From NCBI GenBank assembly GCA_902500055.1, contig GCA_902500055.1_4131.1: 64,000 nucleotides of DNA. The stretch is one strand, 5' to 3'. Source of the stretch: Escherichia coli (GTDB lineage: Bacteria > Pseudomonadota > Gammaproteobacteria > Enterobacterales > Enterobacteriaceae). The position numbers were made by a program, and so were the translations under genes. Below, one piece after another: positions 19,464 to 19,968 of the stretch; positions within the stretch are counted from its first letter, which is position 1, and the number at the start of each line of letters is the position of its first letter. The notes under the pieces are model-generated. The model worked only from the letters and a program-made list of their open reading frames with translations. It searched no databases and was not told the DNA's origin.

Positions 19464-19486
19464 AACTATTTAGTCAAGTACTTTTT
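19464..19486 (-). repeat. promoter-like repeat copy 1 (cagtactgaaNtatttagtcaag)
   Basis: One of three near-identical 23-nt elements; minus strand carries TTGACT -35 with weak -10. Confidence 0.5.
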
Positions 19487-19525
19487 ACAAATCTGGACGT
19501 TCATCTTTAAACATATTAATATCCT

Positions 19526-19548
19526 CAGTACTGAATTATTTAGTCAAG
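19526..19548 (-). repeat. promoter-like repeat copy 2
   Basis: cagtactgaattatttagtcaag; minus strand TTGACT -35. Confidence 0.5.
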
Positions 19549-19897
19549 AATTAATTCGCATTTTTTTGAATTCACCAACCAAGTACTTATAGAACTCATA
19601 AGTGAACAATGGTTCTTGTACAGTACTCATTTGAAAATATTCTTCTTCTGTCTTTGGTACAGGTGAAGTATATGAAATATAGGGATTATAATCTTCTTCT
19701 ACATAAGTAGAAACTTCAACATTAATTGAACTAAGATCTTTATGTAACAAAATGTTTAATATAACAGTTCGTTGGTCAGGAGTTTCTCCATTTTCCATCC
19801 ACTGTAAACACAATCTCATCAGTTCATCCCAAATATAAAATTGGAAGTTGTAATCTTCAAGGTTGCGTTTTATTGCTTCTTCATATTCACTAAACAT
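19544..19897 (-). CDS. EExFQxST-motif paralog family protein
   Basis: C-proximal TEEEYFQMSTVQEPLFTYEF. Confidence 0.55.
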   Translation of the reverse strand: MFSEYEEAIKRNLEDYNFQFYIWDELMRLCLQWMENGETPDQRTVILNILLHKDLSSINVEVSTYVEEDYNPYISYTSPVPKTEEEYFQMSTVQEPLFTYEFYKYLVGEFKKMRINS

Positions 19898-19928
19898 ATC
19901 AAGTTGCCATATAAGTTAAGATACAAAC

Positions 19929-19956
19929 ATTATACAGTACTCAATTATTTAGTCAA
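19929..19956 (-). promoter_or_regulatory. sigma-70-type promoter (repeat copy 3)
   Basis: Minus strand TTGACTaaataattgagtactgTATAAT. Confidence 0.6.
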
Positions 19957-19968
19957 GCTTTTTTTTAA

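Follow-up and report, generated by a model that had tools for sequence, protein, structure and literature searches.

The DNA analysed here is a stretch of 64,000 nucleotides (the window) from an assembly labelled Escherichia coli (GCA_902500055.1, contig GCA_902500055.1_4131.1), and comes from an E. coli jumbo phage of the PBECO4/121Q type (Asteriusvirus); phages of this type from E. coli and Salmonella, of ~350 kb, are 92-99% identical to it. Nearly all of its genes lie on the minus strand (114 of the 121 called open reading frames, ORFs), so we read the window on that strand. In the early region, which is rich in tRNA genes (tRNA-Thr, Asn, Ser, Arg and Gly) and holds a group I intron, a short repeat occurs three times around a gene for a protein of 117 amino acids (aa), and each copy contains the palindrome AGTACT. 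An earlier note on this DNA had taken the repeats for promoters and the palindrome for a regulatory site. The promoter reading is correct but minor; the notable feature is the palindrome.

The triplication itself was borne out. The 22-nt pattern TTGACTAAATARTTSAGTACTG has three exact minus-strand matches, at 19456-19477 (copy 1), 19526-19547 (copy 2) and 19935-19956 (copy 3), where shuffled sequences predict 0.02, and all three copies conform to TTGACTAAATA[AG]TT[CG]AGTACTG. A repeat finder lengthens the family to 34 nt, with identities of 85% and 68% and distances of 70 and 409 nt from copy to copy. The recurrent palindrome of the earlier note, TCAGTACTGA, was found 11 times against 0.12 expected, a count that none of 100 shuffles reached (positions 13648, 13683, 16246, 16367, 17577, 18683, 19455, 19525, 34603, 35393 and 47567). 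The positions first listed were right to within a few bases, and five further copies had been missed.

AGTACT is hyperabundant and under selection in RaK2-like phages

AGTACT is the most over-represented 6-mer of the window, with 141 occurrences where base composition predicts 21, and at least one site lies in 76 of the 121 called ORFs. For each length between 4 and 8 nt, the top over-represented word is nested in CAGTACTG, which occurs 25 times against 0.6 expected. The excess also goes beyond codon composition. When codons were shuffled synonymously within each gene (200 shuffles), minus-strand coding DNA was expected to hold 35±5 sites, with a maximum of 50, and it holds 122. All three reading frames are enriched (60/24/38 observed versus 18/6/11 expected), and intergenic DNA or its edges contain 18 sites in 6.9 kb, a density similar to that of coding DNA.

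Codon choice is bent to build the word. Ser-Thr dipeptides are written AGT-ACT in 60 of 107 cases (15.9 expected), Val-Leu is written GTA-CTN 53 times (24.5 expected), and of 31 tyrosine codons that stand between ..AG and T.., 24 are TAC, versus 28% of tyrosine codons overall. The reverse pair ACT-AGT occurs 7 times versus 10 expected. Part of the recurrence had been ascribed to a family motif Q-x-S-T. Such a motif does contribute, in the form TEEExFxxST with S-T written AGT-ACT, but this paralogous motif explains only about eight AGTACT sites. The early-protein family that carries it, TEEExF(Q)xST(V/I), has no Pfam domain and is encoded at 12208-12663, 19544-19897, 23058-23606 and 29410-30404, with further members at 32420-32860, 33685-34089 and 34557-34952.

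Motif specificity was determined in 364 kb of pooled phage DNA, which also served for the SlmA rule discussed below. Exact AGTACT is 7.3-fold over-represented there, and its one-mismatch variants range from 0.5- to 2.3-fold. The preference for flanking bases is symmetric and graded: CAGTACTG reaches ~44-fold in the pool and 14- to 95-fold in single stretches, A/T flanks give 2- to 14-fold, and GAGTACTC 0.8-fold.

The enrichment is shared by sampled genomes of four genera, Asteriusvirus, Alcyoneusvirus, Mimasvirus and Eneladusvirus. The ratio of observed to expected sites was 5.5 in PBECO4 (1-50 kb), 6.7 and 8.2 in RaK2 (100-150 kb and 172-200 kb), 6.7 in GAP32 (100-150 kb), 6.6 in CBB (100-150 kb) and 7.2 in Yersinia phage fHe-Yen9-04 (25 kb). 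AGTACT was the top 6-mer in every enriched stretch sampled, and these stretches span early, replication and structural regions. The same ratio was 0.2 in Pseudomonas phage PA5oct, a distant relative, 0.3 in T4 (30 kb) and 0.3 in E. coli K-12 (50 kb), a three- to five-fold under-representation. AGTACT is ~25-40 times denser in the phage than in the sampled host, at one site per ~450 bp versus one per roughly 17 kb.

Individual sites are conserved as well, as seen in 19 orthologous genes of PBECO4, GAP32 and CBB. PBECO4 and GAP32 (65% nucleotide identity) have 30% of AGTACT sites in common, as against 13% of hexamer windows overall; for GAP32 and CBB, these shares are 78% and 44%. Where the amino acids are conserved, 70-93% of AGTACT sites are identical at the nucleotide level versus 34-55% of other windows (P 0.02 to 4e-6), and individual sites are therefore under purifying selection. 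Their density is also kept up through site turnover. These results show that AGTACT, preferentially as CAGTACTG, is a hyperabundant palindrome kept by nucleotide-level selection across enterobacterial RaK2-like jumbo phages.

Along PBECO4, density varies three-fold by region and peaks between 135 and 150 kb, where each 5 kb holds 27-30 sites. The stretch at 133-150 kb is an early region of tiny genes, with one AGTACT per ~175 bp and a GC content of 37-39% versus ~33% elsewhere.

Promoter cassettes, non-coding RNA and neighbouring genes

Copies 1 and 3, together with two related elements at 18677-18705 and 312-339, are credible sigma-70-type promoters, predicted from sequence and oriented towards genes, with spacers of 16-17 nt and 10-12 matches to the 12 consensus positions (Table 1). 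Copy 3 (TTGACT-aaataattg-AGTACTG-TATAAT; 11/12 matches, N16) lies 32 nt 5' of the ATG of the 117-aa gene. Copy 1 (AGTAC/TTGACT-aaatagttc-AGTACTG-a-TAAAAT; 10/12 matches, N17) has a TG in the extended -10 register. Copy 2 (TTGACT-aaataattc-AGTACTGA-GGATAT; 9/12 matches) has a poor -10. Its TTGACT contains the TGA stop of the 117-aa gene. GGATAT/GATATT stands in place of the -10, and behind it come a ribosome-binding site (GAGGA) and a 9-codon ORF that is probably the relic of a gene start. As predicted promoters, copies 1 and 3 stand, near consensus and oriented towards genes, and copy 2, which has lost its -10, falls away. The sequence ATATGTTTA is repeated at 19229, 19514 and 19897.

The two related promoters had both been noticed before. 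The one at 312-339 (TTGACA-N16-TATAAT, 12/12 matches) is as described, with AGTACTG abutting the -10. The other (11/12 matches) is real but had been placed at 18693-18721, 16 nt off; transcription from it is predicted to start at 18670, where the 5' end of tRNA-Ser lies. Both promoters of the window with two AGTACT sites, this one and copy 1, precede RNA genes, for tRNA-Ser and for a non-coding RNA.

Alignment with the divergent Asteriusvirus JNE01, PBECO4 and fEgEco12 shows that the three repeats, 23-34 nt long, are paralogues derived from a sigma-70-type early promoter cassette. In JNE01, the place of copies 2 and 1, immediately behind the 117-aa gene, is taken by a single intact promoter (TTGACT-N17-TAAAAT with AGTACTGA), and RNA module B follows it directly, without module A. 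This is the ancestral state: one predicted promoter 3' of the 117-aa gene, for a small non-coding RNA. In the lineage of PBECO4 and the window, a 70-nt tandem duplication gave rise to copies 2 and 1, and its junction cut off the -10 of copy 2, which is a duplication relic. Copy 1 acquired a mobile RNA module of 187 nt (A) behind it, and a further cassette, copy 3, was inserted 5' of the 117-aa gene. The copy 3 cassette (41 nt) is present in PBECO4 and fEgEco12 and absent from JNE01. The fEgEco12 genome keeps AGTACT in copies 1 and 3 and has a decayed form, AGTACC, in copy 2.

The same design is common elsewhere in these genomes. Between 133 and 150 kb in PBECO4, nearly all sigma-70-like promoters of the intergenic spacers have AGTACT at one or both of two fixed places. 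At the first (aaaAGTAC/TTGCAa-N17-TATAAT) it extends into the 5' edge of the -35; the second is TTGACA-N9-AGTACTG-TATAAT; where both occur together, they are 20-22 bp apart. The order of -35, nine variable nucleotides, invariant AGTACTG and -10 is found in dozens of PBECO4 intergenic spacers and once in RaK2. As this architecture recurs in PBECO4 and RaK2, AGTACT is a real promoter-associated element, and the invariance of AGTACTG beside nine variable nucleotides argues for selection over mere common descent. It is not mainly a promoter spacer, though: ~10 of the 141 window sites lie in promoter contexts, roughly 10% of all sites, and 122 are in coding DNA. The tiny-gene region of PBECO4 (133-150 kb) also has a recurrent module made of a stop codon, AGTACTGAATCA, a terminator hairpin and a promoter with one or two AGTACT.

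The 350 nt that lie 3' of copy 1 carry no annotation in PBECO4 and are 81-82% conserved in Klebsiella Alcyoneusviruses. Homology to the RNA of other phages starts directly after the -10 of copy 1, and in RaK2 the RNA is preceded there by an unrelated sigma-70 promoter. Module A also occurs in unrelated phage families, 91% identical in T4-like Proteus/Morganella phages and 85% identical in the T5-like Proteus phage 1; in these T4-like and T5-like phages it exactly fills the gap between two tRNA genes. It also has a divergent copy in Aeromonas phage 65, always lies within tRNA clusters, and its core sequence was found in only four IMG/VR contigs. Its consensus fold has 42 pairs, six of them with compensatory changes. 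The RNA behind copy 1 matched no Rfam family, even at E≤5. Judging from its sequence, module B is probably RNA rather than coding, because its short ORF is interrupted in K64-1. A 54-nt piece of module B (about 19192-19245) matches N4-like coliphages at 81-83% identity.

Table 1. Features of the window discussed in the text, with positions counted from its first nucleotide.
Feature	Position	Strand	Description
Dispersed AGTACT sites	1..64000	.	n=141, one per ~450 bp, flanks preferentially CAGTACTG
Related promoter	312..339	-	TTGACA, 9 nt, AGTACTG, TATAAT; AGTACT 319-324
Phage sigma-70-family factor	2722..3351	-	Early region; only regions 3 and 4 detected
HNH-type endonuclease ORF	17398..18102		234 aa; adjoins the group I intron
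Group I intron	18167..18481	-	Rfam RF00028, 99 bits; between tRNA-Ser and the endonuclease ORF
Related promoter	18677..18710	-	AGTAC/TGGACA, 9 nt, AGTACTG, 'a', TATAAT; AGTACT 18705-18710 and 18685-18690
RNA module B	19102..19250	-	Same transcript as module A; ends in hairpin and T8 terminator (T-run 19102-19109)
RNA module A	19261..19447	-	~187 nt; conserved structured non-coding RNA behind copy 1
Promoter copy 1	19449..19482	-	AGTAC/TTGACT, 9 nt, AGTACTG, 'a', TAAAAT (19454-19449); AGTACT 19477-19482 (overlaps 5' edge of -35) and 19457-19462
9-codon ORF MFKDERPDL	19485..19514	-	Between copies 2 and 1, within the 70-nt tandem duplication unit
Copy 2, degenerate	19518..19547	-	TTGACT (19547-19542), 9 nt, AGTACTGA (AGTACT 19527-19532)
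117-aa early gene	19544..19897	-	Downstream of copy 3; paralogous TEEExFxxST family
Promoter copy 3	19929..19956	-	TTGACT (19956-19951), N16 with AGTACTG (AGTACT 19936-19941), TATAAT (19934-19929)
54-aa paralogous genes	19969..20455	-	Three in tandem, 161-nt period, 76-78% identity; directly upstream of copy 3
C5 cytosine methyltransferase	30902..31762	-	286 aa
TelA-like protein	42207..43343	-	Toxic anion resistance family; among replication genes

PBECO4 has two of the 54-aa paralogous genes at the same place. The homologue of the TelA-like protein is annotated as tellurite resistance in the Yersinia relative.

Candidate readers of AGTACT

The account that we favour, tentatively and with a little less than even confidence, combines mobile early promoter cassettes with AGTACT as the site of a lineage-specific reader. 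From the palindrome, its symmetric flanks, frame-independent selection, lineage-wide presence, density and promoter register, we infer that this reader is two-fold symmetric. AGTACT would then be the recognition site of a lineage-specific protein of that symmetry that binds double-stranded DNA; a DNA-binding protein is our preferred inference and a modification enzyme our second choice. In some early promoters, paired sites 20-22 bp apart would lie on the same helix face, and with one site across the 5' edge of the -35 and the other next to the -10, they could form a steric operator pair. Because AGTACT brackets the -35, its occupancy would control the access of sigma-70 RNA polymerase. The simplest outcome would be that early and stable-RNA promoters are shut off once the reader protein accumulates. 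The hundreds of intragenic sites would load the same factor along the whole genome, and since AGTACT is so much denser than in the host, it would also mark phage DNA apart from E. coli DNA. A stronger version, possible but rather doubtful, makes AGTACT/CAGTACTG the RaK2-like phages' own highly iterated palindrome, at once a genome identity mark and an early/stable-RNA operator served by one lineage-specific protein. Such a protein would coat or mark the 350-kb genome and so set it apart from host DNA in a phage without hypermodified bases, and the early-to-late switch would be tied to the same factor.

Several observations weigh against a DNA-binding reader with an operator role. Pfam searches found no HTH, RHH or AbrB-type domains among 120 window ORFs. 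AGTACT is absent from most consensus sigma-70 promoters in the window and in RaK2 and is therefore not required for early transcription, and the fixed register of AGTACT in promoters could come partly from common descent of the cassettes. Spacing between sites is near random and slightly even (coefficient of variation 0.80-0.97), and pairing at 20-22 bp beyond the promoter cassettes was not replicated in RaK2, GAP32 or CBB. The palindrome also reads alike in RNA, which allows an RNA-level role, and the searched literature held no transcription-start, binding or methylome data on these phages. Two broader ideas were rejected along the way: AGTACT as a general feature of the phage's sigma-70 promoters, given the many consensus promoters without it, and a genome-wide helical phasing of AGTACT, as the 20-22 bp excess of the window stems from its promoter cassettes.

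Alternatively, AGTACT may be the target of a phage orphan DNA methyltransferase or another base-modifying enzyme, which we consider unlikely. Methylation at the -35 edge and in the spacer would couple early promoters to replication, and dense modification would mark or protect the DNA. That only the exact hexamer is enriched resembles the recognition sites of type II enzymes, but the graded flanks (C/G > A/T >> G/C) are more typical of a binding protein, and methylation alone leaves the selected abundance of sites unexplained. Two methyltransferases and restriction-resistant DNA have been reported for RaK2, whose bisulfite data, on the other side, report CpG methylation (PMC3622015). The HIP1 palindrome is linked to methylases (PMC4390886), and a giant virus has orphan viral methyltransferases for AGTACT (PMC7253447). 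The DNA of fEgEco12 is cut normally by ten enzymes, ScaI not among them.

Two methyltransferases could be considered as the enzyme, a Dam-type protein (PF05869) in PBECO4 and the C5 methyltransferase of the window. The Dam-type family usually targets GATC, and from this family knowledge the PBECO4 enzyme probably does so too; proteins near it gave no Pfam domains. Along its full length, the C5 enzyme resembles the catalytic domain of DNMT3A/3B, and AGTACT contains no CpG. The best structure matches of the enzyme are mammalian DNMT3A/3B (E about 1e-24), with bacterial M.HhaI and M.HaeIII well behind, which fits the CpG methylation of RaK2. We set it aside as the AGTACT enzyme, as it is DNMT3-like with CpG as its inferred target. 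Mom-like modification was rejected, because the enzyme is limited to Alcyoneusvirus among the matches listed: RaK2 has a Mom-family PF25680 protein, tblastn returned nine Klebsiella (Alcyoneusvirus) records, and no Escherichia record was among the matches listed, although the collection holds ~38 Asteriusvirus genomes.

Less probable still is a Chi-like self signal for a translocating nuclease, recombinase, helicase or packaging enzyme, by which phage DNA would be spared, or machinery recruited, during breakdown of the host DNA. Being palindromic, the signal would serve in both directions, as would suit a phage that has no modified bases and relies on recombination to replicate. The contrast in density between the phages and E. 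coli K-12 would suit such a signal, as would the dispersed and slightly even placement of sites, the selection on both density and individual sites, and the lack of hydroxymethylcytosine enzymes in RaK2 (PMC3622015). It leaves the fixed places around the -35 and -10 of early promoters unexplained, known signals of the Chi type are asymmetric, and no candidate enzyme was found.

A role of AGUACU in RNA, as a processing site, protein-binding site or self-pairing element, seems very improbable to us. Enrichment in all frames, conserved synonymous positions and the presence of the motif in nearly all transcription units agree with it, and the palindrome appears in RNA from either strand. Two-fold symmetric flanks, with strand composition considered, point instead to recognition of double-stranded DNA, and some sites have fixed positions 5' of predicted transcription starts. 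We know of no RNase or RNA-binding specificity that fits AGUACU.

We give next to no credence to binding by a host protein, E. coli SlmA or LexA (half-sites TACTG and CAGTA). The SlmA site GTGAGTACTCAC has the identical central hexamer (PMC3020112) and the trait is limited to phages of enterobacterial hosts, but T4, another coliphage, is depleted in AGTACT. For SlmA, positions 1, 2, 4 and 5 of the site must be G, T, A and G, and position 3 must be a purine (PMC3020112). The corresponding pattern GT[AG]AG[CT][AG]CT[CT]AC had no match in the 364 kb, where position 3 prefers C and disfavours G (the 0.8-fold of GAGTACTC), and the LexA box CTGT-N8-ACAG had none in the window, so that both proteins were rejected on sequence grounds. 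It is just as hard to credit that the excess is a by-product of codon or dipeptide usage, paralogous motifs or mutational bias: AGT, ACT and GTA are preferred codons, amino-acid order lifts the expectation from 19 to 35 and the paralogous family adds its few sites, but the synonymous shuffles, the unenriched ACT-AGT pair, the equally dense intergenic DNA, the conserved synonymous positions and the depletion in the AT-rich relatives PA5oct and T4 all speak against it and largely refute it.

AGTACT beside known systems

We found neither AGTACT enrichment nor a palindromic promoter element described in the RaK2, CBB, fEgEco12 and Sharanji papers or through full-text searches. A ~seven-fold excess implies a major sequence-specific reader of the genome, so far undescribed, and the signal bends codon choice in most genes and persists over four genera at ~65% nucleotide identity of core genes. 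To our knowledge, these phages have unmodified cytosine and no nucleus-like shell. AGTACT is a handle on how they distinguish self from host DNA and shut off early genes. Its density is also a simple signature of this phage lineage in metagenomes, and ScaI would yield hundreds of fragments per genome if its site is unmodified.

The promoter cassettes resemble the promoter-early/stem-loop (PeSL) cassettes of T4-type phages (PMC2839356, PMC4122927), as both are repeated near-consensus sigma-70 early modules between small ORFs in plastic regions, present or absent among close relatives. Terminator hairpins precede many of the PBECO4 cassettes at 133-150 kb (by eye), as in PeSL. A minus-strand scan beside the three copies found no terminator-like hairpin, and thus no PeSL-type stem-loop. 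Unlike PeSL as described in those papers, our cassettes have an invariant palindrome in the spacer or at the -35 edge.

As in operator pairs and Dam-sensitive promoters, two palindromes lie two helical turns apart, bracketing the -35 and abutting the -10. Unlike in those systems, the same palindrome occurs hundreds of times inside genes, and no repressor or methylase has been identified. With Chi, KOPS and DNA-uptake sequences, AGTACT shares the character of a dispersed, selected, over-represented and genome-distinguishing word. Those signals are asymmetric, biased in orientation and read by known machines, whereas AGTACT is palindromic and has no known reader. From the SlmA site it differs in its flanks: the centre is the same, and the flanks that SlmA requires are absent or disfavoured (PMC3020112).

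The closest parallel may be drawn with the highly iterated palindrome of cyanobacteria, HIP1 (GCGATCGC; PMC5861425, PMC4390886), within which two orphan methylases have their sites (PMC4390886). Like HIP1, AGTACT is a short, hyperabundant palindrome with roughly one site per gene that is independent of frame in coding DNA, conserved beyond neutral expectation, lineage-specific and of unsettled function. Unlike HIP1, a fixed 8-mer, it is a 6-bp core with graded flanks; it is viral, and the sampled host DNA is depleted in it; and no methylase has been linked to it, and it also occupies fixed places in early promoters. AGTACT offers a viral counterpart of the HIP1 puzzle, in an E. coli system that is amenable to genetics.

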